Source: a candidate division WOR-3 bacterium
GTDB lineage: Bacteria > Hydrothermota > Hydrothermia > B15-G9 > WFZT01
Assembly: GCA_027053075.1 (NCBI GenBank)
Contig: JALUEE010000047.1
Span: forward strand, 1 to 64,000
Direction: 5' to 3'
Length of the DNA stretch: 64,000 nucleotides
Shown here: positions 33,988 through 53,798 of the stretch, one piece after another
How the letters are laid out: every line of letters begins with the position of its first letter
Position numbering within the stretch: the first letter of the stretch is position 1
The notes under the pieces: generated by a model
Told to the model about the DNA's origin: nothing
Database searches by the model: none
Seen by the model: only the letters and a program-made list of their open reading frames with translations
Position numbers and translations under genes: made by a program

Positions 33988-34807
33988 GTAAAGATTTTAC
34001 AAGCAAAATGTGTCTGAAAGCAAATTACAGATAATTGAGATCAGGGCTCATCAATCTAAGTCGCACTTATTTGTGCAAGTTATTTCTACTCTCTACCATG
34101 CTAAATACTCATTCCAGGGATATGAGCATGAGGTTCTCTCGGGATTATAACATAGACATTCATCTTCTGCTTGCTTGGGTGTAAATCAATAACAACCAGG
34201 AACTTCTCTAAGCATAGTCTCCAGGGAGGTATAGATCGAATCGGAAGACGGGGGAGGATGTCTTATATTTCGCTGATTCTTGCATTTTGGCTTCATGTTC
34301 GCGTTTTGAGCTGTTTCAATACGTCTTTTATGAGTAAAAGGGAATAACACCGTAGGAAGAAATTCTTTAACTTCCTTAATAATTCTCCCGTTTGCGGCCT
34401 GAAAGATGAATCGAAGAGGTTGAAAATTCCCCCATGTTCTGCGCTCATCAGAGTTAGAGCTCTATTTCTGGGTCTTTGTAAACGTCTGGAGGTTCGTATG
34501 TTCCGGGGTCGTCAGAGTTGCCGAGCTTTTCCAGTTGTTTGTCTTGCATGTCGAGAATTTTCTTCTGTTCCCCTGATCGTTGATTATCCTTTTTCCACTT
34601 TCTCTGCAAGCGTTGTCCTGAAAAAAATGGTAATTGGAAAAACTGGTGAGCTCCCTCCCTCGCTTGCGAAGCAAACGGGCTCTTTTACGCTCAGAAACGT
34701 TGGTTGGGATAAGTTAGCGCCCCGCATTTCTCGAAATCTCATTCCGTAGAGGTGTTTGGATAAGTTAGCATTCTTCCCCGCCTGCAAAATAAGTAGGGGA
34801 GCTGCCT

Positions 34808-35043
34808 GAATTAAATCCAGCTCTGCGTCATGAGCACGGGTATTTGTGAGAAAGTGGATTTCTGGGCACTAAGAATTAAATCAAGCTCTGTGACATAAGC
34901 ACCATCCGCGAGAGAAGAGATTACATTCACGACCTTAAAGACAATAGGAATTAAATCCAGCTCTATAACATAGTCACTTAAAAAACAACGCTGAGCTGGT
35001 TTTGAAAGAGCATGAATTAAAATCAGCTCTATAACACAGTCAC
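34808..35043. repeat. CRISPR-like mini-array: four diverged 30-nt repeats with unique 35/45/36-nt spacers
   Basis: Repeats at 34808, 34873, 34948, 35014 (e.g. GAATTAAATCCAGCTCTATAACATAGTCAC). Confidence 0.7.
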
Positions 35044-35220
35044 CCTCCCGTGGTTTTTTTGGTAGAACCTTTTTCATAGGCTTTTTCATAGTCACCCTCC
35101 CCCACTTGCTCTGCAAGTGGAGGAGTAGTCCAGTTCCCACCTTCGAAACTAAGGAAGTTTCCCTCCCCCACTTGCCCTGCAAGTGGGGGAGGGCAAGGGA
35201 GGGGGCATTCCGCTTGAAAA

Positions 35221-35502: not shown

Positions 35503-36789
35503 GTTCCGATCCTACCTACGAGGCATGGAAATTATCATCCACCTGAACGTCCCATGAAGCAGAATCAAGTTCCGATCCTACCTACGAGGCATGGAAATGA
35601 AAAATTCGGAATCAATTGCCCTGTAAGTGAATTGTTCCGATCCTACCTACGAGGCATGGAAATATTGGCCTTGTTCCTGCAGAAAACATAAGAGTGTCTT
35701 TGTTCCGATCCTACCTACGAGGCATGGAAATTTGAGATTGAGAAGTAGCCGTCAGTAGTGGAGATAGGTTCCGATCCTACCTACGAGGCATGGAAATTCC
35801 CCATATTCAGCTCGATATAGTTTTTTCAATTCGTTCCGATCCTACCTACGAGGCATGGAAATTACCTCCTTTTATTTTAATTATCCCTAAACCTAACGTT
35901 CCGATCCTACCTACGAGGCATGGAAATGCTTTGACTGATTGAGGTATGTGGAAAGTAAGTAAAGAGTTCCGATCCTACCTACGAGGCATGGAAATTTTTG
36001 TTTATAATCCCTTTCATAACATTTCTCCTCGTTCCGATCCTACCTACGAGGCATGGAAATGCGATCTTCTCAGAGAAATACGGGAACTAAAAGAGGGTTC
36101 CGATCCTACCTACGAGGCATGGAAATGCAAAAGTCCCAGGTAATTGCCCTGGAGAATCCCTTGTTCCGATCCTACCTACGAGGCATGGAAATCTCCGTTG
36201 CCGGCTAATCCGAATGCAAGGGTATTGGTTCCGATCCTACCTACGAGGCATGGAAATTAGATATCGAGAAGATTCTGAGGCTTCCGGTGTATTGTTCCGA
36301 TCCTACCTACGAGGCATGGAAATCATTTCTATTTTCTAACTTGGGTTTCACAAATTTTTCCCGTTCCGATCCTACCTACGAGGCATGGAAATAAACCAAT
36401 ATCACCAAATCCTATATAATCATGACTTTCGTTCCGATCCTACCTACGAGGCATGGAAATGAATAGACTATAAAAGCCCAGCCGTTTTGAGTTGGTGTTC
36501 CGATCCTACCTACGAGGCATGGAAATTATGTTTGGAAACATGAAATAAAATGGTATAAGAGAGTTCCGATCCTACCTACGAGGCATGGAAATCCGGAAGA
36601 CCCAGAAAAGATAAAGGAACTTGATGTAGTTCCGATCCTACCTACGAGGCATGGAAATACGGTTTTATCCACACCGTACACGGAGTTTGACAGGGTTCCG
36701 ATCCTACCTACGAGGCATGGAAACTCCAATCCTCTTTTAAGACAAATACATACGGCAATGTTCCGATCCTACCTACGAGGCAAAAAATT
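35503..36789 (+). CRISPR. CRISPR array, 20 repeats and 19 spacers (35-39 nt)
   Basis: Repeat GTTCCGATCCTACCTACGAGGCATGGAAAT (30 nt); repeat 19 ends GAAAC, repeat 20 (36760) is degenerate at its 3' end. Confidence 0.99.
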
Positions 36790-36868
36790 TGGTCTATCTT
36801 CTCTGACTCATTGACCTTCTGAGATTGCTTTGAAGATAAAAAATTTTGGGATTTTGAAACGTCCTCCA

Positions 36869-43171: not shown

Positions 43172-44194
43172 TTAATCAATGACAGGAATATCCATTTCAG
43201 TGACGTCAATTCTCACGAGACTTTTATCACCGGACTGTCTCACATACTCAGCCTGTCTATCTCCCACCACAGCCTCAAGAATCATTGCTGATGATACCAT
43301 CGCGGTCCCACCGGTTATATTAAAACTAATATCGCTATCTTCATAATTTTTGAGATTTTGCAGCAACCTATCTAATTCAATCTTAACGTCTCTGAAATCA
43401 CTGACATCAACAACTCTGGACTTTTCTATGATCAAATCTCCCGTGGTAATTCTTTTTTCGAGATGTGGAATAACCTTCAGAAATTTTTCAAAATCAGCAA
43501 AATGTTCTTTTGCTTTCTCTGATAATATGACAATAACCCCTTCAAGAATGTGATTTTCGTGTATAATTGCTCTCAACGCCGGTGTCCAGTTGCCGGGCAA
43601 GTCTTTTAAAGTTTCCTCTTTAGGTATTGCCGGGTTACCCAGTTGCCGTAATTTTTCTTGAAGAGATTGAATCTGTTCAAAGGGCTCACTGCTGGGCAAA
43701 CTCAGTGCAAAGATAAGAACTTTTCTGGGGAGCGGTTTATCGTGGGCAGGTTTTTCTTTTGGCTCGAACAAACAATTGATGTATAGTAGAGGCAATAAAA
43801 ACAGAAACAAGATTGCCAATATGAATGTCAGAATGTGATGCCAGAGTAAGCCCTTATTGTAATCCGGTGTTAAAACAAGTATCCCTGCATCCCTCACACT
43901 ATCAAATACCCAGGAAATCTGGAATAAAACACTCAGGAAAATCCAGATGGACAGGTATCTATAAATTTTCTTTAACCCTTTTCGCGGTGGCTCTTTTAGA
44001 AAGTTACGAAGGGCATCTGTGAGGCCAATAGATTTGTCCTTATATTTATACATCAAGATGGTTATTGCTGAAATCAAAAGGATAATCAATAAAGTTTGGC
44101 CTAACGCCATAAAGGAGAGTATAAATGGGAAAACGCTTGAAAAGGCCAAAAGTGCAATTATGAACAGTATCTTTAAAAATTCCCTGAAGCTCAA
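43172..44194 (-). CDS. Transmembrane CARF-domain CRISPR effector (Cam1/Cam2-like)
   Basis: About 4 N-terminal TM helices; C-terminal Rossmann-like domain with ISFNITGGTAMVSS; last gene of the cas operon. Confidence 0.75.
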   Translation of the reverse strand: MSFREFLKILFIIALLAFSSVFPFILSFMALGQTLLIILLISAITILMYKYKDKSIGLTDALRNFLKEPPRKGLKKIYRYLSIWIFLSVLFQISWVFDSVRDAGILVLTPDYNKGLLWHHILTFILAILFLFLLPLLYINCLFEPKEKPAHDKPLPRKVLIFALSLPSSEPFEQIQSLQEKLRQLGNPAIPKEETLKDLPGNWTPALRAIIHENHILEGVIVILSEKAKEHFADFEKFLKVIPHLEKRITTGDLIIEKSRVVDVSDFRDVKIELDRLLQNLKNYEDSDISFNITGGTAMVSSAMILEAVVGDRQAEYVRQSGDKSLVRIDVTEMDIPVID

Positions 44195-44196
44195 TT

Positions 44197-44583
44197 TTAT
44201 ATCCTTCTCATTTCTCTGAACTTTTCTCTGATGCTCTGGAGATTTATTATTTCTGCAACCTCAAATTTTGGAGGGGTAGAATTCGGAACCGGCTTCAATC
44301 TCACTACAGGTGGGAAATATCCCATCAAACCATGAAGTGCTGCAAGGAGGGTGACAGCAATAAAATTAAAGGCTGGTGGAACTATTATAATCGGCCGTGT
44401 CTGCCACTCCTCAGGTGTCAGGTTACACGCCTCAATAAGATCTTTCACCTGCTCCTCAAAAGACTTTTCATTATCAAAAAACACTGGAATCTGCCTTATC
44501 TCCTCAATCTCCTCATCTATCAATTTCCTGATCTGCCCCACCTGCTCCTCAGTTAGTGGATGAGAAAAATTAAGCACGAGCAT
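44197..44583 (-). CDS. csx15: CRISPR-associated protein Csx15
   Basis: LNFSHPLT, LHGLMGYFP, EIINLQ motifs. Confidence 0.8.
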   Translation of the reverse strand: MLVLNFSHPLTEEQVGQIRKLIDEEIEEIRQIPVFFDNEKSFEEQVKDLIEACNLTPEEWQTRPIIIVPPAFNFIAVTLLAALHGLMGYFPPVVRLKPVPNSTPPKFEVAEIINLQSIREKFREMRRI

Positions 44584-44585
44584 GG

Positions 44586-44713
44586 TTACTTTAAAATTTT
44601 AAACACTCCATATCCCTGATTCCCTTTTGCTCCAACACCTATGTTTTCAAGGGCAAATTCGAGAAATCTTTATCCCAGAATATTGAAAAAGTATCTATAA
44701 AAATAACCTTCCC
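44586..44713 (-). pseudogene. cmr6: Remnant of a III-B-like cmr6 (C-terminal pieces)
   Basis: GKVIFIDTF, then in another frame RFLEFALENIGVGAKGNQGYGVFKILK-stop, ending 2 nt before the csx15 ATG. Confidence 0.75.
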
Positions 44714-44717
44714 GTTA

Positions 44718-45575
44718 TTATGATTTAATTGGTCGCCATAAACCATTATCCAATATTTCAAAGTAAACATCTTGATCGCTATCCACCTTTGTTCCTGGTT
44801 TCCAAGTCAAGCCTTGTGTATAAATACGCTGTAAGTACCTGCCCTCCAAAACTTCAAAATCTCCTTTAAATTTGAAGTGCGGGTCTGGCATTATATGACC
44901 AAATGCTATATTGGATTTTATGCGTGGATTTGTATGATTCAGTTCCACTTCGTAATCCAAAAAACGAGAAGCTTCCGGATGTTTCACGAGTTCAATATGA
45001 CCAAATCCGTAGCGGGTATCTGCTCCTACCATCAGTTTCTTTATTGAGAAAACTTGGTTTTGAACACTCTCATCGGCAATAAACACATACCCCACCATGA
45101 ACATCTCGGGAGGTGGATAATGGTTACTAATTTGCCAATAAGGTTGAATGCACTCTAATTCGCGAAGTGTCCCTTCCTCAGCACTATCTGATTTGGGATC
45201 AATGGATGTGGAGGGAAACGAATACAGAATTTTTGATTTGAAGTCTCTGTTTGGCTTATCATCATTTGGAGTGTCTTCCCTTTTCCAAACGAGTCCATCA
45301 GAGTATTCTGAATACCACATAGCGTATTCATCGCCAATTTTTTCGGCTGGGAACAGATAGGAAAATCGGACATTTTGTAGCAAATTTTCACCAATCGAAA
45401 TATAATCCGGGAAACTACTTCCTGCCGTATCCCGTGATAACTCGGCTGTTAATGCTCCCCAAATTGTCCTTGCTGGTATGTATAAGCGGGTTCTGTTCAA
45501 AATTCCTGCTGGTGCCGTGCCGATATTTATGGGTGATTTTACCTTCCAGACCCATCGGAACATCTTCCATGCCAT
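44718..45575 (-). CDS. cmr3: Type III-C RAMP Cmr3 (Cas5 group)
   Basis: SPINIG, YIPARTIWGALT, GADTRYGFG; position after cmr5. Confidence 0.75.
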   Translation of the reverse strand: MAWKMFRWVWKVKSPINIGTAPAGILNRTRLYIPARTIWGALTAELSRDTAGSSFPDYISIGENLLQNVRFSYLFPAEKIGDEYAMWYSEYSDGLVWKREDTPNDDKPNRDFKSKILYSFPSTSIDPKSDSAEEGTLRELECIQPYWQISNHYPPPEMFMVGYVFIADESVQNQVFSIKKLMVGADTRYGFGHIELVKHPEASRFLDYEVELNHTNPRIKSNIAFGHIMPDPHFKFKGDFEVLEGRYLQRIYTQGLTWKPGTKVDSDQDVYFEILDNGLWRPIKS

Positions 45576-45581
45576 AATTTC

Positions 45582-45950
45582 TCACCCCTGTTTGGCCTTC
45601 AAGTGATAACGAGCATACGAGAATGCGGTGCGTAGAAGGTCTCGAGCAAAAAGTAAATCATCTAAATCTTTGGAGTTTGCTAAGAGCTTTATTGCTTCCA
45701 AAATATCGTCCGTAGTATCCAAGCGATTTCCGAAAATGGTCTTGAGAAATTGCAGAGATTCCGATCTAACCTCTTTAGCTACATTGTTATTCTTGGCCTT
45801 GAGATATAGAAACATCGCATACGGGCCTTGCTCTTCCAAAACAGTCAAGGCCTCGTTGACAAGATTTTCATCTATGCCAGAAATCTGGGCTATCTCACGG
45901 CCCAATTCGGCACACTGAATGTCCAAATTTTTCATTTGAGCTTCACTCAC
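45582..45950 (-). CDS. cmr5: Type III small subunit Cmr5 (Cas11)
   Basis: Helical, ALTVLEEQGPYAMFLYL, YARYHLKA; GTG start with GGAGG. Confidence 0.75.
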   Translation of the reverse strand: MSEAQMKNLDIQCAELGREIAQISGIDENLVNEALTVLEEQGPYAMFLYLKAKNNNVAKEVRSESLQFLKTIFGNRLDTTDDILEAIKLLANSKDLDDLLFARDLLRTAFSYARYHLKAKQG

Positions 45951-45978
45951 GGCTTTCCTCCTCGTTTGGTTCAGAGGC

Positions 45979-47010
45979 CTATGACGGATTAGATTGTCTC
46001 TGAGCGGGTTCAACGCAATCAATATCTTGGGTTCCGGGCGATTCATTCTCATGCACAACTTCTACGCGTCCCATGCCTCGAGTGCCCATGCCGCCGATGC
46101 CCAAGTGTTTGAGATAGGGGTGAGCCTGGTGGGTTACCTCATGCACCCTTTCTGGAGAATACATTCGCTGACCACCATCCAGAATGACGCCTATCTCCTG
46201 TCCACCTATTCTAAAATGCTGAGGATTCTTTGCGATAATTTCCCACACCAGGACCGTGGATCGAGGCAGGGCTTCGTAAGAGAAGAGAGCCCTTTCTTCG
46301 GCAGCACCAGTTTCGGGATTGATGGAAACCGAGGTGCGCACTTCCAAATTGCTGTTGACGATGTGGGCGAAGAGGCGGTCAGGCACCAAAGCAAGGCGGT
46401 TTTGGATGTAATCTGGGATACCCAGGCCTTGCAATTTAGTTTTAATATCATTCATTTGGGCACACGCTTGCACAGGCAGCAATAACCAACCCAAGTTAAG
46501 AGGGTTGCCCGAGTTTGATTCAAGGTAAACGGCATTTTCCTCCACCCCCTGCACATTCAAACCTATAAAACGCAAGGTCTGAGGTGCAGTCACCCACATG
46601 GGGCCTTGACGGGTAGCGACAGGGAAGAGCAGCAAATGGACATCAGTAAAGGCGGCCAAGCCTGCAAAACCGCCTTCCTGCCCTGCACCACGGGCGAAAC
46701 CAAAGACAGTGCAAACGGGACAGTCAGGTTGGCGACAATGCCCATGATCCGCATCCAGCCCTAACCCGGCGCAATCGGGGTAAAAAGGTTTATCTCGGTT
46801 CGGAAATTGTGCTGTCCGATTTTCTTCAAAATACATCGCCACATAGGCCCGATACACTCCAGCTAAGCTGGACCCAGGAATTTTAGGCACCTGGGTGACC
46901 GGGTCGCGCACAATAGTCAAATCTACCCGACCGATGCGGGTCCCACCGGTGCCCACATGAATAGGGTCCAGAGCCAGACCAACCTGCAAGAATTTTTTGT
47001 AACTAGACAT
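45979..47010 (-). CDS. cmr4: Type III RAMP Cmr4 (Cas7)
   Basis: DPIHVGTGG, VDLTIVRD (catalytic Asp), IPGSSLAG, GGMGTRGMG. Confidence 0.9.
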   Translation of the reverse strand: MSSYKKFLQVGLALDPIHVGTGGTRIGRVDLTIVRDPVTQVPKIPGSSLAGVYRAYVAMYFEENRTAQFPNRDKPFYPDCAGLGLDADHGHCRQPDCPVCTVFGFARGAGQEGGFAGLAAFTDVHLLLFPVATRQGPMWVTAPQTLRFIGLNVQGVEENAVYLESNSGNPLNLGWLLLPVQACAQMNDIKTKLQGLGIPDYIQNRLALVPDRLFAHIVNSNLEVRTSVSINPETGAAEERALFSYEALPRSTVLVWEIIAKNPQHFRIGGQEIGVILDGGQRMYSPERVHEVTHQAHPYLKHLGIGGMGTRGMGRVEVVHENESPGTQDIDCVEPAQRQSNPS

Positions 47011-47023
47011 TATTTACCTCCTT

Positions 47024-50000
47024 TCAAACATTTTCTTTAAGGACTATTGTATGCCAATCTATCGCCCATTGGAGTAATCTCTGTTGGGCAGAGTCTATGA
47101 GGGTTTCAAGTGCTGTGCCCCTGACCTCTAAATGGTGCACAAGCATGGCACGGAGAGTATCTTCCCACAAATCTTTTGAAACGGCTCGTTGCCCCTCGGG
47201 TGTTTGCCATTCCTTTTCCAAACGCCCAAGTTCTGTTCTAAATCTCTGAAGAGCCGTTTGGCTTGGGACAACTTTCTTTAATAGGTTCCATATTTCGCGC
47301 ATTTGCTCCCAATCTTCCAAGTAATGTAAATCTGGGTTAGAGAAGCGAGCGGAGGTGCTTCCCATGAAGAGGATGGTTACACGCGCTGTGGATACTTTTA
47401 CACCATCACCTGGACGAAGGTCCGATACATGACGGTAAACACGGCCATCCTTTGGATGGCGAAAATCTCGGGGAAAACGAAGTTGTCGATCCTCAATTAC
47501 CATGTAAGGATAGAACACATCATCTCGCCCATCAGGCATAGCAGTAGGCACTATCTTTAAGATGCTCTTGCCGTCTTCCAGTTTTAAGCGGAGGACTACC
47601 ACACCTGCTTGTCGTTCCACTTCTTCCACCTGCCATGTTTCCTCCTCTCCTTTCAGTTCTTCTTCCATTTTACGTGTTGCTCCGATCACGGCCTGATAGG
47701 GCAACATTCGAGGGAATGCGACCACGCCTATCCGTAAAGGAAGCCGATCCCACACGCGGGAGAAGTGTTCCTTCCACCAGGAAACAGCTATATCCACACA
47801 TTCGGAGGCCGCTTCCAATGGCACCAGCACCCGAAAACGAAGTGGAGAGACTTCTACCGGAATGACCGGGTGATACAAGCTCAAGTGCGCATGAGGCTGA
47901 CGCAGCTCATTCACATGGGTAACAGTCATAGGACGCTCCTGACCAAAGGTATCTTCTTCTTCCAGCCTAATTTGAGCACCCTGAAAGGAACTCGATTGCT
48001 CTTCTGGCCGTAGCAATCTACCCAGATTGGAAGCCGTCACAAAACCTCCCAGGCTACGCACATAGACCAGGCTAATCTGCCGACCTTCCCAACGGCCATT
48101 GTAAAGGGTCAGGTCTCGCCAATCGTTATTGTCGTCTGGAACCAACACCAAGCGTCGGACACGCCAGCAATTTTCGCTGCGAGCCGCTATCTGCCGAAAT
48201 TCCTTCAGCAAGTCATGGAAGAACTCCTCGGCCTCCCGCCAGAAGCGATAGACACGGCCAGGTGAGGGAAGCTTGCGGAAGAGTTGATGCGCAAGCCAAG
48301 CAGCTCGCTGGTCGTCATTCAAGATACCCCATGTAGGTGCATCGGTACGATCCTCTACAATTTTACGGAAAAAAGTTGGCCAGTCATTTTCATACTTGTA
48401 ACCCTCTTGAAGGTTGGCAAGCAATTGGTCGTTTTTATCGAATTTAAAATGCTGTGGATTTTGTGGATCGCGAAACCTTTGTTTTAGCTCGTCAATCAGC
48501 TTATCCATAGAGCCTGTGGGGGCAATAGGATTAGGTTGACCTGAAAGGACCAGGTTAAATCTCACCCACTCCGGTATTGCTTGTACCCGCAGGCTATCCA
48601 CACGGCTGCCATTGAGCCAATCTTCAAGGTCCAGTGAGAATGTTAGCAAAGCCAGGCGGCCGTTGCGGTCAGCCACCTCCTCGAACCAGATGGTGTCGTA
48701 ATCCAGTTGCCCCTGAAGCCATGCATCTCTTCGATGGTGGCGCCGCTCGCGGCATACCGCGCATGGCTTACCCTTGTTGGTGGGATCACCGTTTAGTCGC
48801 ACACGGCAGACGGGACACACATGACCACGCGTCTCTGAAGGAGCCCTCCAATGAACATCCCACTGCTTGTGAACAGGGACGGCCACTACCAGCTTGGACT
48901 CTTTAAGCTCCCTAACAATGGGTACCAATGAACGGGTCGGCTTACTCAGGCGCACAAAGGGCGGGGTTTCCAGTTCCAGATTACGGGCGATTTCTTCTAC
49001 TTGATCTTGGAGCCATCCATTCCATCCTCGGAGCCGGGATGCGAAGTTCTCTTCATCAAACTCAAAATTCGGATCTCTCCGTCTTTGACGTTCCTGTTCT
49101 TCTTCATCGAATCTCTCGCCGGGAAAAGAAAACACGGCCATGCTGCTGTCTCGATAAAGCAAAGAGCCTGCAGCAATGTCCACCTCCACCAATTCAGCTA
49201 CACGACGGAAAAATTCGTCAATGGCACCTTGAGCACCTGTCCAGTCACCAATTTTTACCGCGCGGGCTTCGTAGTGCTCGGTCCCAAGGGCGATAGTGAG
49301 CAGGCGCCAGCGGGTATTGCTTTTGGTAAAATTATTGATAGCCAATTTCTCATCTTTCGATAGGTCATCGAAGGACTTCTCTTTTCCTTTCTTTGTTCTA
49401 AGGTTTATACCCAATTTGGTAGCTATGCTCTTCCAGTTCCAAGGAAAACCCTTATCGAGCAACGCCCCAGCCACCGCGCTCTTAAATAGAGCCGCAGCCA
49501 CATAGGACTGGTCCCACAAGGTAACATCGTTGTTGGGCAAACGCGTCTCGGCTAAGGTGGACATAAAAGCTCTTCGGACAAAAGATTTTTCTCCGATAGC
49601 TCTATTCCGCCAGTCTTGCCAATGAGCTACATCTGACACACCTCTGGTTCCTAAGTCCCGCAACTCCTCCAAAACTCGCCGGATTTCTCCCACCAATTGC
49701 TGCCAGCCCTGTGGAGTCAATAGTTCAGGTGGATTGGCCAGCAGGTTACGCTTTGGGTGGCCCCAAGGTGAGGAAAGCCACATGTGAGGAATGGTTTGCT
49801 TAAGATAATCTGAGGTAGAAGTAGGAAGGTTTTTCTCGACGCCAGAGACAATACCATGTCCTGCTTGGAGTAATCCCAAAAGACCAGGGTTACGTCCTGC
49901 ATGTTGTTCAATAAACGTAGAAAAAGAACCTGGCCATGCATTATTGGGTATTCCACTCCCGTATAGCCGTTTTACCCATTCTAATAAGGTATCCCATGGA

Positions 50001-50182
50001 AAAGGTGGCGTTTCCAAATCATGCCAATGTCGTTCATCGTAGCCGTTGTTCTCGCCACCATGACGGCGTAAAAATTCAATTCGTGCCTTTCCAGCCATGT
50101 GAAACCACCCAATGGCCTCCATTGCTAAGAGTAAAGGGCGATGTTGCCGTAAAGTCTCAGCCGGTGAGAAAGTGCTGCTCAT
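47024..50182 (-). CDS. cas10: Type III-C large subunit Cas10 (Csx11-like)
   Basis: ETRLPNNDVTLWDQSY, CPVC...CAVC, KLPSPGRVYRFW; HMAGK where HD is expected and no GGDD; start ATG 50182. Confidence 0.85.
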   Translation of the reverse strand: MSSTFSPAETLRQHRPLLLAMEAIGWFHMAGKARIEFLRRHGGENNGYDERHWHDLETPPFPWDTLLEWVKRLYGSGIPNNAWPGSFSTFIEQHAGRNPGLLGLLQAGHGIVSGVEKNLPTSTSDYLKQTIPHMWLSSPWGHPKRNLLANPPELLTPQGWQQLVGEIRRVLEELRDLGTRGVSDVAHWQDWRNRAIGEKSFVRRAFMSTLAETRLPNNDVTLWDQSYVAAALFKSAVAGALLDKGFPWNWKSIATKLGINLRTKKGKEKSFDDLSKDEKLAINNFTKSNTRWRLLTIALGTEHYEARAVKIGDWTGAQGAIDEFFRRVAELVEVDIAAGSLLYRDSSMAVFSFPGERFDEEEQERQRRRDPNFEFDEENFASRLRGWNGWLQDQVEEIARNLELETPPFVRLSKPTRSLVPIVRELKESKLVVAVPVHKQWDVHWRAPSETRGHVCPVCRVRLNGDPTNKGKPCAVCRERRHHRRDAWLQGQLDYDTIWFEEVADRNGRLALLTFSLDLEDWLNGSRVDSLRVQAIPEWVRFNLVLSGQPNPIAPTGSMDKLIDELKQRFRDPQNPQHFKFDKNDQLLANLQEGYKYENDWPTFFRKIVEDRTDAPTWGILNDDQRAAWLAHQLFRKLPSPGRVYRFWREAEEFFHDLLKEFRQIAARSENCWRVRRLVLVPDDNNDWRDLTLYNGRWEGRQISLVYVRSLGGFVTASNLGRLLRPEEQSSSFQGAQIRLEEEDTFGQERPMTVTHVNELRQPHAHLSLYHPVIPVEVSPLRFRVLVPLEAASECVDIAVSWWKEHFSRVWDRLPLRIGVVAFPRMLPYQAVIGATRKMEEELKGEEETWQVEEVERQAGVVVLRLKLEDGKSILKIVPTAMPDGRDDVFYPYMVIEDRQLRFPRDFRHPKDGRVYRHVSDLRPGDGVKVSTARVTILFMGSTSARFSNPDLHYLEDWEQMREIWNLLKKVVPSQTALQRFRTELGRLEKEWQTPEGQRAVSKDLWEDTLRAMLVHHLEVRGTALETLIDSAQQRLLQWAIDWHTIVLKENV

Positions 50183-51198
50183 GGCGTACCTCCTTTGGTT
50201 AGCCAGTTTTGAACTTCCTGCCAGAGTTCGTCGCGAGTATCCTTTTCCACGCTGCCATGAGTTTTGTGGAAAGCGCGCCACTTTTTGATTTCCGCTGTGC
50301 CCCAGCCCACAGTGCGCTTGGCGGAGATCCCATAGGGAGTAAGCAAAGTTTCAATAGCTTCAAGCAGTTTTGGGAGTACATCCACAGGTTTTGCCTCTGG
50401 CTCCATACCGGGCCAGGGCGCGTAAAGTAATGAAAGTGTTCCTTCGGCTCCCTCAACTTCCTCTCTTTCTTGGGTTCCATCAGACTTTTTCTTCACCTGT
50501 ATCGTCCGTCCAGGAACCACTTCATAGTAAATAGGTTGGGTGCCAGCGCGATTGGTACGACTATGTGGGTTGATGACCTCGAAGCCGATCTTGTTGAACC
50601 ACGTGGGGTAGAAGACCAGAGCGCCCTGGTGGAAGTTTTTCTCTTCCTTCTTCTCGTTACCAAAGAGATGCTGAATCCAGTCCGGATCCCACCAGCCATC
50701 TATTTTGCCATTGTGTTGTTCCAGATATTCCATCAGTCCTTCGTGCATTCTACAGGCCCATCGCAGCATGCCTTTACAAGAGGAAGCCGCCATAAATGGC
50801 ACGCCAAAGACCCGGTCTTTACGCACAGGGTTGTCCATCACATGGAAAATTCGGTCATCACGGGAATACCAGGGAGTGAGTAGTTCAAAATCCACCTGAA
50901 GAGCAAGCCAACGATCAGATAATAGCGTGGAAAAGTCAATTTGTAGTCCTGGATACAACTTGACCGGGAATCTCCGAGGCACTTTTCCCATGTATTCCTT
51001 ACGGAGCCTCGTTTTCTCCCGCTCCGCCTGACGTTTTCCCTGTCTGTCATTTGTCTTTTCCGCTTCTAATCGCTTGATTTCAGTCTTCAAGAAGCATTTG
51101 AAAATATGATCGATAAAACCTCCGGCCAGCCTCCAAGCCACCGGAGTGTTTTCCAATGGTTCGCAAGTCTCAAGAAAGATGAAGTAATCCCAAGTCAT
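50179..51198 (-). CDS. cmr6: Type III-C RAMP Cmr6
   Basis: LLTPWYSRDD, KGMLR, LVFYPT, EVINPH, YGISAKRTVGWG. Confidence 0.85.
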   Translation of the reverse strand: MTWDYFIFLETCEPLENTPVAWRLAGGFIDHIFKCFLKTEIKRLEAEKTNDRQGKRQAEREKTRLRKEYMGKVPRRFPVKLYPGLQIDFSTLLSDRWLALQVDFELLTPWYSRDDRIFHVMDNPVRKDRVFGVPFMAASSCKGMLRWACRMHEGLMEYLEQHNGKIDGWWDPDWIQHLFGNEKKEEKNFHQGALVFYPTWFNKIGFEVINPHSRTNRAGTQPIYYEVVPGRTIQVKKKSDGTQEREEVEGAEGTLSLLYAPWPGMEPEAKPVDVLPKLLEAIETLLTPYGISAKRTVGWGTAEIKKWRAFHKTHGSVEKDTRDELWQEVQNWLTKGGTP

Positions 51199-52421
51199 GA
51201 ATTTTCCTCCTGTTTGAACAATCGTTCCATAATTTGCTCTCCTGTAATGAAATCCTCATTCGGATTAAAGTCCTGCCAAATTTGCCCCAAGCGGCGCTTC
51301 ATTTCTTCAAAATCCACTAAACCCGGCTTCACAAAGCCAAAGGTGCGGCGTGCTTCTTCTGGATGTTCGAAACTGAACACTTTTTTGCTTACCTGTTGAC
51401 TACCCGCAAGCCAGTGATTAACCTCGTTATCTCGCCAGAAGTTCTGCGCTTGGTTCTTCCGCATATTCCTTCCAATGACAAGATTATATGTACTTTTGGT
51501 GAACGATTGCCTTGCCAGATACCGTCCTTTCACGAACCAGAAGTTTTGCAACGAGGCCCAGGCAAAATCTTGGTCGTTAAAGCTCTTTCGCCACCGTTCC
51601 TGTTTTACATATGCTTCTGCTTGCTGCAGAGTGCAGCCAACTCCTTGAGGCCGCTCCTCAACCGTGATGAGCCCGAAATCCTGATGGTGTCTCTTTCCGG
51701 CCCAAGCATTGATCTCCCGAGTTTCATTGTCCCTTCGCACTTTGATTTTGAGAGGTTCACCATGCGGTTTTCCACTAAGGAGGTTTTCAAGGTCAAGAAG
51801 ACGAGTCACCAATGTGCTATCAACTTCCAGGATTACATCGCCTTCTTGTAACTGGAGCCCCCGCCGACTGTGTCGCACTTTTATCTGCCCGCTTGAATCG
51901 TCCAGATCATCGGCGCCAAGATCAGCGATTCCCCATTCATCTGACGGCTTGAACACCGTTTTCCCACCCAAGGCCCCGTATTCGGCAATAAGGTGGATGG
52001 TTGCATCCAGCAGACACCATTCTTCTGGATGAATAGGTCGCAAAGGGATGAAGCGTAGGATAAAAATATTACTCCCGTTGTCGTCATTATCTACCTTGAT
52101 CTGATTTTGGATGACCTTTTTTCCATATTTGTCCACCACCATAAGCCGGAACTTGCGTGCCCAACCAGTGCAACCGAAAAGTTCACAAACCACGCAATGG
52201 TGGCCAGGTTCATGTGGCTGTTTGTTAGGAGCTGGGCAACGAATTTCCGACGCCGTCGGGTCACAAGCCTTCCCACCCAATCCTCGAACTAACACCTCGA
52301 ACCACCAGCGAAGTGAACCCATTATACCGGTCAAGATCGTTCTTTCCCCACGCCTTGAAGCATCCCCTGTGAATATCGGGGTTAGCGCTTTTAACTTCCA
52401 TTCCTCCCATTCTTTACTCAT
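51195..52421 (-). CDS. cmr1: Type III-C RAMP Cmr1 with PDZ-like insertion
   Basis: LTPIFTG, GSLRWWFE, CELFGCTGW, YGALGGK. Confidence 0.85.
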   Translation of the reverse strand: MSKEWEEWKLKALTPIFTGDASRRGERTILTGIMGSLRWWFEVLVRGLGGKACDPTASEIRCPAPNKQPHEPGHHCVVCELFGCTGWARKFRLMVVDKYGKKVIQNQIKVDNDDNGSNIFILRFIPLRPIHPEEWCLLDATIHLIAEYGALGGKTVFKPSDEWGIADLGADDLDDSSGQIKVRHSRRGLQLQEGDVILEVDSTLVTRLLDLENLLSGKPHGEPLKIKVRRDNETREINAWAGKRHHQDFGLITVEERPQGVGCTLQQAEAYVKQERWRKSFNDQDFAWASLQNFWFVKGRYLARQSFTKSTYNLVIGRNMRKNQAQNFWRDNEVNHWLAGSQQVSKKVFSFEHPEEARRTFGFVKPGLVDFEEMKRRLGQIWQDFNPNEDFITGEQIMERLFKQEENS

Positions 52422-52543
52422 TAGGATATCTCCATTTTTAAAATAACCTGTAAGGACAAGAGAATAACGGTTTCATCAGGAAATAAGCATTTCGGGTATA
52501 GGGAATCATGGCTGTAGAAATTCAAGAGATAAAAAGTCTCTGT

Positions 52544-52660
52544 GAACCAGAATCTCATTGCGCCTCTTATCGAGGCGGGGCGGAGTTCGGGCTCACCCTC
52601 TGGGTCAGCTCCGCCCATAAACATTGGGGTTAAGACTTTTAGTTTGAAGGTGGTTTTCAT
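52544..52660 (-). pseudogene. cmr1: Truncated III-B-like cmr1 (first ~39 codons)
   Basis: MKTTFKLKVLTPMFMGGAD...ELRPASIRGAMRFWF, then similarity is lost; own RBS. Confidence 0.85.
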
Positions 52661-52697
52661 AGTCCCTCCTTACCCATTCGCAAAGAATGGGATTTTG

Positions 52698-53456
52698 TTA
52701 ATCCTTATTTCTCACCACTTCGATCATGCCGAAGCCCTGGCTGTTTTTGGCTCCCAGGCCCGCATTGTAAGCAAGCATAAACCAGGGCTCGGGCAGGCTT
52801 AATTCATATATTCCTACCCAACCCTTAACAATGACGCCTTTAAACTTCGTTATTATCTCGTTGTGCTTCTTAACCTTTACGGGCTTTATATACCCCTCAA
52901 TTGGTGGGATGTCGTTTTTGGAGAAGTAAGCTTTGGCCTTGCGACGGAGGTTATCAAAGATCAATTCTTCAAATTCTTTCTCGAAGGGACTAAAGTAATA
53001 GGTCTTTCTCTGTCCATCGGACGTGTATAAAGTTCGATAAACTGTTATCGGAGAGATTGCTTTAATTTTCATAGGTCCCGAGAGTTTGAAAGGTCTCTCA
53101 ACCTCAATTGATACGAGATTGCATTTAGCTGAGCCGATTCTTACCACCCCTTCCTTAACCAGTGTAGCTGCGAAAGATTCGAGAATCTCAATATCAACAG
53201 ATGAAATCTTAAACCAAACTCGCCCCTCAAAAATCAGCTTTTTGCTTATCGGATCATACCTTCTATTTTCACCGAAGAGTCTTGAGAAGGTGTATAACTT
53301 GAATCTTCTCTTTCCAAATTGGTAGCCTTCATCATGTACCCATTCAGCGAGCTTCTCTTTGATGTTGTTGAGGATAAAACTCTGGATGATGTGGTTGTAA
53401 TTGACGGAGATTCTAAGGATTCCGTTCTCTGGCTCAAATTTTACAATTAATCTCAA
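52698..53456 (-). CDS. cas6: CRISPR endoribonuclease Cas6
   Basis: YNHIIQ, HDEG, FKLYTFSRL, GLGAKNSQGFG. Confidence 0.95.
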   Translation of the reverse strand: MRLIVKFEPENGILRISVNYNHIIQSFILNNIKEKLAEWVHDEGYQFGKRRFKLYTFSRLFGENRRYDPISKKLIFEGRVWFKISSVDIEILESFAATLVKEGVVRIGSAKCNLVSIEVERPFKLSGPMKIKAISPITVYRTLYTSDGQRKTYYFSPFEKEFEELIFDNLRRKAKAYFSKNDIPPIEGYIKPVKVKKHNEIITKFKGVIVKGWVGIYELSLPEPWFMLAYNAGLGAKNSQGFGMIEVVRNKD

Positions 53457-53798
53457 AACATCCTCCTACTTGAAACCTATTTTAATAGTTCGTTAACCGT
53501 ACTTGCAAGTAGCAGGATGACATCGTTGTGAAAAGTTATAAATTGCTGGTTTTGTAGAGATTCTCCATGCGCACGAAGTGGGGGAAAATTTATCAATATA
53601 TTTCAAAGCTTAGCGCTTTATAGTGATCGATAATTCCTATTATTCAAACAAGTTTGATAACGAGTGGACTTTTATGCAAGAAGGCGAATATAATTTCAGT
53701 TTGAAATTGTGTTGGGTAAAGGATGCTTTGAATGTAAACTTACCCTTCATAAGCGTGTATAGGAAAAAATCCCGCGCTGCGGGATAGGAGGTTGTCAG

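Follow-up and report, generated by a model that had tools for sequence, protein, structure and literature searches.

Remnants of a type III-B operon flank a foreign type III-C cassette in a candidate division WOR-3 bacterium

The stretch of DNA analysed here, called the window, comprises 64,000 nucleotides (nt) of a candidate division WOR-3 bacterium (positions 1 to 64,000 of JALUEE010000047.1), and belongs to contig C47 of a 2.44-Mb metagenome-assembled genome (MAG) of 114 contigs that is 95% complete. Its minus strand carries a single compact type III CRISPR operon consisting of cas6, a 79-codon open reading frame (ORF), cmr1, cmr6, csx11, cmr4, cmr5, cmr3, a 134-nt gap, csx15, and a gene for a membrane protein with a CARF domain (TM-CARF). 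An earlier, sequence-only reading had proposed that a type III-C cassette took the place of the core of a resident type III-B operon, leaving pieces of cmr1 and cmr6 at the two ends. The scars, the ancestral relatives, the composition of the inner genes, and a Cmr4 tree were found to agree with this proposal, and it is very probable that a foreign six-gene III-C cassette replaced the core of the resident operon.

The cassette and the remnants around it

Behind cas6, a cmr1 was claimed to begin and to break off after about 39 codons, and this was borne out. The stub opens at the ATG at 52660, and its match to Cmr1 runs through 39 codons to 52544, where the last residues are RGAMRFWF. The score against TIGR01894 was 37.8 bits (cut-off 28.65), and the 39 residues alone matched the PADLOC Cmr1 model with an E value of 1.2e-12. 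No stop codon is present at the break; the frame continues for 40 unrelated codons, giving a 79-residue ORF (52421-52660) whose stop overlaps the start of the III-C cmr1 (TAATG). In a related genome, G042, in which an intact cmr1 also follows cas6, the Cmr1 N-terminus matches the stub at 95% identity, and that of the same-genus genome G003 does so at 86%. The N-terminus of the adjacent III-C cmr1 reaches only 46%, which excludes local duplication as the origin of the stub.

The linker of 123 nt that forms the tail of the stub ORF either arrived with the swap or was made by it. Neither the linker nor its 40-residue reading had a homologue in the fetched loci or in the rest of the genome. No minus-strand promoter-like site was found in it, and such sites numbered 14 in the region versus 14.8 in shuffled sequences. 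The chance that 40 shuffled linker codons would stay open was 0.09, a figure calculated post hoc. The same 79-residue stub ORF, with four substitutions (95% identity) and the linker tail still open, is present in P0001, a protein from another assembly.

At the other end, the gap between cmr3 and csx15 (44584-44717) holds two Cmr6 pieces in different frames. Piece A, GKVIFIDTFSIFWDKDF, begins 4 nt past the double stop of cmr3, and its counterpart in the G042 Cmr6 is GKVIFMDAYPVNWDNDP. Piece B, searched alone, matched Cmr6 models only, each time at their C-terminal ends, with E values of 0.002-0.01 against six PADLOC models and of 0.011 against TIGR01898, the latter below the cut-off, as expected of 24 residues. 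Thus, fragments from both ends matched the expected families, Cmr1 and Cmr6. The central and glycine-rich C-terminal Cmr6 motifs that had been noticed in this gap were both recovered, but the stop does not stand right after GVF, as had been supposed; four codons (KILK) intervene.

A close relative of this end was found in L037, a metagenome contig of 1151 nt with a TM-CARF protein 81% identical over 166 residues. It retains 82 intact cmr6 codons (TIGR01898, 86.6 bits, cut-off 51.1; 62% identical to the G042 Cmr6), which end at the same TAACCATG junction with csx15. The homologue of piece B, part of this intact stretch, shows 2 base differences only. From 44660 to the stop all but these 2 bases are the same in the window and in L037, whereas the sequences are unrelated above 44660; the remnant therefore appears to have undergone a second, internal deletion of about 200 nt. 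Such a deletion means that the history may have been stepwise, or one of serial turnover, rather than one clean swap.

Between the scars, family models and gene order revealed the complete III-C block that had been described, cmr1-cmr6-csx11-cmr4-cmr5-cmr3, in which csx11 is the cas10 of the cassette (Table 1). The same order was found in genome G023 and in loci L118, L120, and L121. The start of csx11 is a conserved methionine and overlaps the cmr6 stop (ATGA). The N-terminal motif of Csx11 reads HM in place of the expected HD, and a search of solved-structure sequences with Csx11 returned a chance match only (E value 0.9). The III-C Cmr1 contains a PDZ-like insert of about 80 residues, at approximately 51689-51935, between KPSDE and HHQDFGL (Pfam PDZ_2, 32.6 bits, cut-off 27). 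The insert also gave weak matches to HtrA and SpoIVB PDZ domains, and all three of the nearest relatives are without any insert at this place. Within a Cas7-like subunit of a system that has no cyclase, such a domain could serve to recruit proteins.

Table 1. Features of the operon and its surroundings (window coordinates; strand "." where no strand applies)
Feature	Position	Strand	Basis
cas6, resident (outer), first gene of the operon	52698..53456	-	TIGR01877 127.3 bits; PADLOC Cas6b 6.4e-70
Hairpin, perfect 7 bp (CCCATTC/GAATGGG), between cas6 stop and stub ribosome-binding site	52673..52691	.	sequence
cmr1 stub, 39 initial codons of the ancestral III-B cmr1 plus its Shine-Dalgarno sequence	52544..52660	-	TIGR01894
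AT-rich linker, in-frame 40-codon tail of the stub ORF	52421..52543	-	sequence, relatives
cmr1 of III-C cassette	51195..52421	-	TIGR01894 59.6 bits
cmr6 of III-C cassette	50179..51198	-	PADLOC Cmr6 2e-62
csx11 (Cas10 of type III-C)	47024..50182	-	TIGR02682 285.1 bits, cut-off 248.95; PADLOC Cas10c (CAS-III-C) 5e-115
cmr4 of III-C cassette	45979..47010	-	TIGR02580 113.6 bits
cmr5 of III-C cassette	45582..46058	-	PADLOC Cmr5 (CAS-III-C) 1.1e-29
cmr3 of III-C cassette, last cassette gene	44718..45575	-	PADLOC Cmr3 7.2e-73
cmr6 remnant piece A, GKVIFIDTFSIFWDKDF (44663-44713) plus 2 nt	44661..44713	-	likeness to G042 Cmr6
cmr6 remnant piece B, EFALENIGVGAKGNQGYGVFKILK, last 24 codons (44589-44660) and stop	44586..44660	-	Cmr6 models, L037
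csx15, resident (outer)	44197..44583	-	NF040560 166.9 bits, cut-off 35, model positions 1-125 of 125
TM-CARF protein, 340 residues, resident (outer)	43172..44194	-	PADLOC 'CARF, 2 TMs' 1.4e-23, 'TM+CARF' 5.3e-18
CRISPR array, about 20 repeats of 30 nt	35503..36790	.	repeats

Ancestral operon and origin of the cassette

The ancestral arrangement was recovered in relatives. Full cmr1-cas10-cmr3-cmr4-cmr5-cmr6 operons lie upstream of csx15 in G042 and G009, with extra CARF-type genes between, and in G003 a cas6 (64% identical, the best found) is followed by an intact cmr1 ORF of 436 residues. The predicted synteny, cas6-cmr1 through cmr6 to csx15-TM-CARF, is therefore present, and in L037 cmr6 stands directly before csx15. 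Contigs of four sequencing runs (X1, X2, X4, and X10, from four studies) were aligned to 43500-53480; stretches without cover in X4 and X10 were not counted as absence. Contigs of X4 and X10 match the cas6 side to 52544 and then read RAIAGAVTNK and RAIAGAITND, as cmr1 does. On the csx15 side, contigs of X2, X4, and X10 agree with the window as far as 44660-44663 and then continue into cmr6, for example with ELLKKAYEWL followed by EF (these peptide readings are translations of 30-letter consensi). The loose ends place the breakpoints between 52544 and 52543 and at about 44660. The Cas10 of type III-B (TIGR02577) had no match anywhere in the genome.

The composition of the inner block sets it apart. 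The GC content of 45800-52400 is 0.499, compared with 0.439 for the genome, which places it at the 99.95th percentile among 1841 segments of 6.5 kb. When codon usage was pooled over the six cassette genes, only a fraction of 0.0005 of 2000 random gene pools deviated as much; pooled over the three outer genes, it was ordinary (0.41). Both profiles, which had been named as tests of the proposal, thus rise over the inner block. A mosaic cassette, with a low-GC cmr3 of other origin, was considered and rejected; Cmr3 is 40-65% identical among all relatives, and the 38-44% of the window's copy is no outlier.

Sequence comparisons revealed that the cassette is not of the lineage's own kind. The csx11 family scored above its cut-off in 9 of 61 related genomes. 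The nearest cassette, that of G023, a member of another family, is 47% (Cmr1), 65% (Cmr6), 66% (Csx11), 74% (Cmr4), 58% (Cmr5), and 44% (Cmr3) identical, whereas III-C genes of the same genus (G004, G001) are only 26-43% identical to those of the cassette. A second, cut-off III-C-type set lies on contig C99 of the same genome (about 130-2240), with cmr4, cmr5, and cmr3 at 43%, 31%, and 26% identity. A Cmr4 search of a species-genome collection gave nine loci, 57-69% identical, under the titles Chloroflexota, Anaerolineae, Ardenticatenaceae, Blastocatellaceae, Thermogutta, or 'uncultured bacterium'; the GC content is 57-62% in eight of them and 46% in the ninth, and 59% in G023. In a Cmr4 tree of 20 rows, the window fell into a clade with support 99/96 together with G023, Thermogutta, Ardenticatenaceae, and Blastocatellaceae, and C99, G001, and the same-order G011 fell into another. 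Judged by this tree, the cassette's Cmr4 groups with copies from Chloroflexota, Planctomycetota, and Acidobacteriota, and not with the III-C of the genus itself. Forcing C99, G001, and G011 together with the window's Cmr4 cost 185 log-likelihood units and was rejected by the approximately unbiased (AU) test (p-AU 0.00022). Since the C99 Cmr4 groups with G001 and G011, the genome holds a native-type III-C set in addition to the foreign one.

The outer genes have a different history. Identity of Cas6 follows taxonomy, with 64% within the genus (G003), 55% within the order (G006), and 42-51% within the class, and the nearest Csx15 is that of L037, followed by same-genus and same-order genomes. 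Inner and outer genes thus have different relatives, and each of the checks named in the earlier reading agreed with its proposal. Among 79 metagenome csx15 loci, of which only about 20 reach at least 3 kb upstream, none had csx11 or a window cassette gene as best match; csx15 and TM-CARF matches were absent from all 13 III-C loci. The cassettes of L118 and L121 open with cmr1 and lack a preceding cas6; their neighbours are restriction, helicase, and abortive-infection genes, so the six genes travel as a unit. No direct or inverted repeats flank the window's cassette, apart from short chance pairs, and no transposase or integrase ORF is present within 44.5-52.7 kb.

The scars with their ancestry, the foreign origin of the cassette, and the occurrence of the swap in a second population are shown here; the following history would account for them. 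A type III-B operon, cas6-cmr1-cas10-cmr3-cmr4-cmr5-cmr6-csx15-TM-CARF, would have been the starting state. The segment from cmr1 codon 40 through the GKVIF motif of cmr6 would have been replaced by the horizontally acquired six-gene cassette, together with an upstream linker of 120 nt. Both joints were probably illegitimate: flanking repeats and a recombinase gene are lacking, and no homology is seen at either joint. The exchange may have occurred in one event, or by insertion and then deletion, and a later deletion of about 200 nt would have broken the cmr6 remnant. The cassette may now be transcribed from the resident promoter upstream of cas6. Ribosomes would start at the old Shine-Dalgarno sequence of cmr1, read the 79-codon stub ORF, and stop on the new cmr1 start, and termination there could couple translation of the new cmr1 to the resident operon. 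Guides would be supplied by the resident Cas6 and the array at 35.5-36.8 kb. Csx15, as a ring nuclease, and the membrane CARF effector were probably left without a cyclic-oligoadenylate (cOA) signal.

Recurrent joints at the start of cmr1

A second stub was found in G009. It is 84% identical to that of the window, lies in an open frame of 66 residues directly before a complete III-B cassette, and is 57% identical to that cassette's own cmr1. Its ORF ends on the next start codon (ATGA), as that of the window ends on TAATG. In a set of 64 genomes of the class, only the genome of the window (G000) and G009 have stubs that lie clear of contig ends; a third candidate touches a contig end. A survey of 272 genomes of the phylum yielded five other N-termini with 79-95% identity, all in intact ORFs of 305-436 residues. 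The protein database contains short ORFs with near-identical starts and differing joints: P0003 breaks after RFW, the window and P0001 after RFWF, and P0002 and P0004, which are of the G009 type, after RFWFR[AV]IAV; P0005 is a short ORF of 64 residues with a near-identical start. Within six codons (38-44), the cmr1 stubs thus show no fewer than three different joints, which implies either a hotspot or an inherited stub that was re-used. This pattern suggests recurrent cassette turnover at the 5′ end of cmr1, and the clustering points to a preferred site for it.

The G009 locus is rearranged too. On its contig C95 (L015, 3152-6330), a secreted protein with a type IX secretion system (T9SS) tail and an ABC permease gene separate cas6 from the stub, and the GC content falls; upstream it is about 0.52-0.57, and across the III-B cassette it is 0.40-0.44. 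No cmr6 remnant was found behind G009's own cmr6 in three frames of the 500-nt gap.

One possible, still tentative explanation is that the first 40 or so codons of cmr1 beside cas6 act as a docking site, at which type III cassettes have been exchanged repeatedly in vent populations, the stub being kept as a translational coupler. If so, a foreign cassette, even one of another subtype, could be expressed at once from the resident operon, the coupler consisting of the old ribosome-binding site and a short ORF whose end falls on the newcomer's start codon. Stub ORFs ending on the next start codon suggest such a route to immediate expression. A single chromosomal locus would then carry segregating III-B and III-C alleles whose flanks recombine.

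A related possibility, which we regard as somewhat unlikely, is that the stub is older than the last swap and stayed beside cas6 through several cassette replacements, each of which trimmed or re-joined its dispensable end. The arrival of the III-C cassette would be the latest round, and the cmr6 remnant would stem from the previous cassette, which had a complete cmr1 of its own. In its favour are the G009 stub, preceding a complete III-B cassette with its own cmr1, the three different joints of nearly identical stubs, and the two stub ORFs that end on the next gene's start. It is opposed by the contigs at least 88% like the cas6 side of the window, which continue past 52544 as ordinary cmr1 for at least 10 codons, and by G003 and the four other genomes in which such N-termini head intact cmr1 ORFs. 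Replacement of the III-B core by the III-C cassette, whether in one event or two steps, remains the preferred reading.

Signalling genes, setting, and comparison with known systems

Csx15 proteins are described as ring nucleases or sponges for cyclic tetra-adenylate (cA4), activities known from other members of the family (10.64898/2026.01.21.700848). The csx15 of the window is 96% identical to that of L037, with a ratio of nonsynonymous to synonymous substitution rates (dN/dS) of 0.038 and a dS of 0.55. In the TM-CARF protein, a hydropathy scan found hydrophobic segments within residues 1-52 and at 114-146, and the protein is 50% identical to the one that follows csx15 in G009. PMC11229360 presents Cam1 as a cA4-activated family of TM-CARF membrane effectors, and states that III-C systems are without cyclase sites and known effectors. 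PMC12669027 likewise notes that III-C lacks cyclase sites and that cyclase loss goes with loss of CARF genes. In agreement with these accounts, none of ten variants of the GGDD-type motif was found in the Csx11 of the window or of seven relatives (0 of 8), and none of 25 ORFs flanking the eight nearest III-C cassettes had a CARF, SAVED, or Csx15 Pfam match. No other cyclase was detected in the genome, which, within its 95% completeness, gave no Cmr2, Csm1, Cas10 palm2 (Pfam), or SMODS match.

The lack of a cyclase motif in Csx11 and of another cyclase in the genome suggests that Csx15 and TM-CARF are probably orphaned relics of the III-B system, left without a cOA signal. The proposal that cas6, csx15, and the membrane effector were inherited by the incoming cassette thus holds physically, but functionally it probably does not, given a Csx11 without a cyclase motif. 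This history explains an apparent exception, a cyclase-less III-C locus with a ring nuclease and a CARF effector, as one that contains leftovers, and it offers a natural test of what becomes of signalling genes whose signal source has disappeared.

In the X2 population, which has the swap, one contig carries a 2-nt insertion inside csx15 at 44300, and another skips 451 nt (43755-44207), the TM part of the TM-CARF gene, the intervening letters not being known. Both may reflect relic decay, or alignment effects at 88% likeness. Identity between the window and L037 is itself a mosaic over 43660-44700: it is 58 of 60 at the cmr6 tail and csx15 start, 50-55 of 60 through csx15, 34-48 of 60 over approximately the first 60 codons of TM-CARF, and then 58-59 of 60 again. 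Such a pattern suggests recombination between the flanks of the two alleles.

It is improbable, in our view, that the locus is a functional hybrid, in which the III-C complex or another enzyme of the cell still feeds Csx15 and TM-CARF, and the outer genes are working parts. Both genes are intact, the dN/dS of csx15 is low, and the title of a 2026 preprint has Csx15 bridging signalling by CRISPR and by the cyclic-oligonucleotide-based antiphage signalling system (CBASS) (10.64898/2026.10.26.761840). These points are countered by the Csx11 without a GGDD-type motif, by the genome without a Cas10 palm2, Cmr2, Csm1, or SMODS match, by the III-C neighbourhoods free of CARF, SAVED, and Csx15 families, and by published surveys, which find no effectors with III-C (PMC11229360).

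The joints were also examined in independent assemblies. A Logan contig of X1 spans 43500-46413, and thereby the 3′ joint, with 0 differences, although X1 is possibly the source sample and would then provide an independent assembler rather than independent data. X2, which belongs to another study, has an 8109-nt contig that matches 52670 to 44689 in seven listed pieces. It differs at 578 of 6577 aligned bases (about 91% identity), so a diverged second population also holds the stub, the linker, and the whole cassette. The MAG origin, the GC step from 0.40 to 0.50 at the cassette, and a pile-up of depth, in each of the four runs, over the conserved 3′ end of cas6 and 5′ end of cmr1 might suggest that an assembler joined another organism's III-C contig into the III-B locus, but this chimera has almost no credibility and looks already refuted: both flanks belong to the same operon on one contig, the X1 contig bridges the 3′ joint, the X2 contig carries the same arrangement, the stub-linker joint recurs in P0001, and assemblers do not create the internal deletion of the remnant.

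Several points weigh against the replacement of the III-B core as we describe it. Its coupling and transcription from the cas6 promoter are inferred steps, and the promoter scan did not outperform shuffled sequences. The signal from composition is uneven, the cassette's cmr3 (GC 0.41) and cmr5 (0.44) being host-like or lower. The group used for the AU test was chosen after the tree was seen, and no close donor was found (best Cmr4 identity 74%). Piece B is 2 bases off L037 while the dS of csx15 is 0.55, and a neutral old scar would look otherwise; recent flank recombination or constraint must therefore be assumed. Both signalling genes are intact, and csx15 is under strong purifying selection relative to L037, as continued use would entail, although a comparison of two sequences cannot tell selection before the swap from selection after it. 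A cyclase-bearing Cas10 could sit in the unassembled part of the genome, and the C99 locus itself is cut off. Finally, the evidence from the runs consists of contigs, not reads.

The neighbourhood of the operon consists of housekeeping genes, including metG, argG, a two-component system, and T9SS-tail proteins. The array at 35503-36790 is likely the guide source processed by the resident Cas6. Just before it, at 34802-35191, two small families of 36-nt direct repeats (four and three copies, spaced by about 65-75 nt) overlap an ORF of 123 residues, and could be a degenerate second array or a repetitive protein. The hairpin between cas6 and the stub was listed as terminator-like on the plus strand only, which is not the strand of the operon; it is unlike the CRISPR array repeat, and a small hairpin-like sequence of another kind precedes the G009 stub. 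At 52491-52823 the summed contig depth was 2-5 times that of neighbouring bins in 4 of 4 runs, with many loose ends at 52728 and 52763; the cas6 3′ end, with its G-rich loop, and the cmr1 5′ end are common to many organisms of these samples at 88% identity or more. In X1, a contig (depth 59 versus about 85) connects 44574, which lies 9 nt inside csx15, with the stub break at 52544, the intervening letters not being known; it could represent a relative that lives alongside and has a diverged III-B block, or a form devoid of effector genes.

So far, discordant trees have been the main ground for inferring exchange of effector and signalling modules among type III systems. Here, an exchange of this kind can be read in the DNA itself, with its joints mapped to the base, the ancestral allele in relatives, and the derived allele in a second population. 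Shuffling of effector, sensor, and ancillary modules was inferred by phylogenomics in PMC12669027, and the cases outlined there share with the window an effector module and signalling genes of discordant history in one locus; the window differs in that the joints are mapped, the ancestral allele is recovered, and joints recur at one site. Literature searches found no title or abstract describing such scars, which is not a claim of their absence from print. Module shuffling is thus known; new are the scars mapped to the base, a III-C locus that retains relic signalling genes, and joints that recur.

Compared with the III-B operons of G042 and G009, the window shares the upstream cas6, the downstream csx15 and TM-CARF genes, and remnants of cmr1 and cmr6 at the expected ends, but has lost Cmr2/Cas10, cmr3, cmr4, cmr5, and most of cmr1 and cmr6. 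Type III-B is characterized by Cmr1-Cmr6 with a Cmr2-type Cas10, of which 39 cmr1 and 41 cmr6 codons are left. With type III-C, the cassette shares a Cas10 of the Csx11/Cas10c family, the gene order, and the lack of a cyclase motif. It differs in lying within a former III-B operon behind a cmr1 stub, and in the PDZ-like Cmr1 insert, absent from the nearest relatives. Type III-C loci are, moreover, expected to lack cOA-dependent ancillary genes, and are reported without ring-nuclease and CARF effector genes in PMC11229360, whereas here csx15 and TM-CARF follow directly downstream. The TM-CARF protein resembles Cam1 in architecture, with N-terminal hydrophobic helices and a CARF domain at its C-terminus, and differs from it in its 340 residues and several hydrophobic segments.

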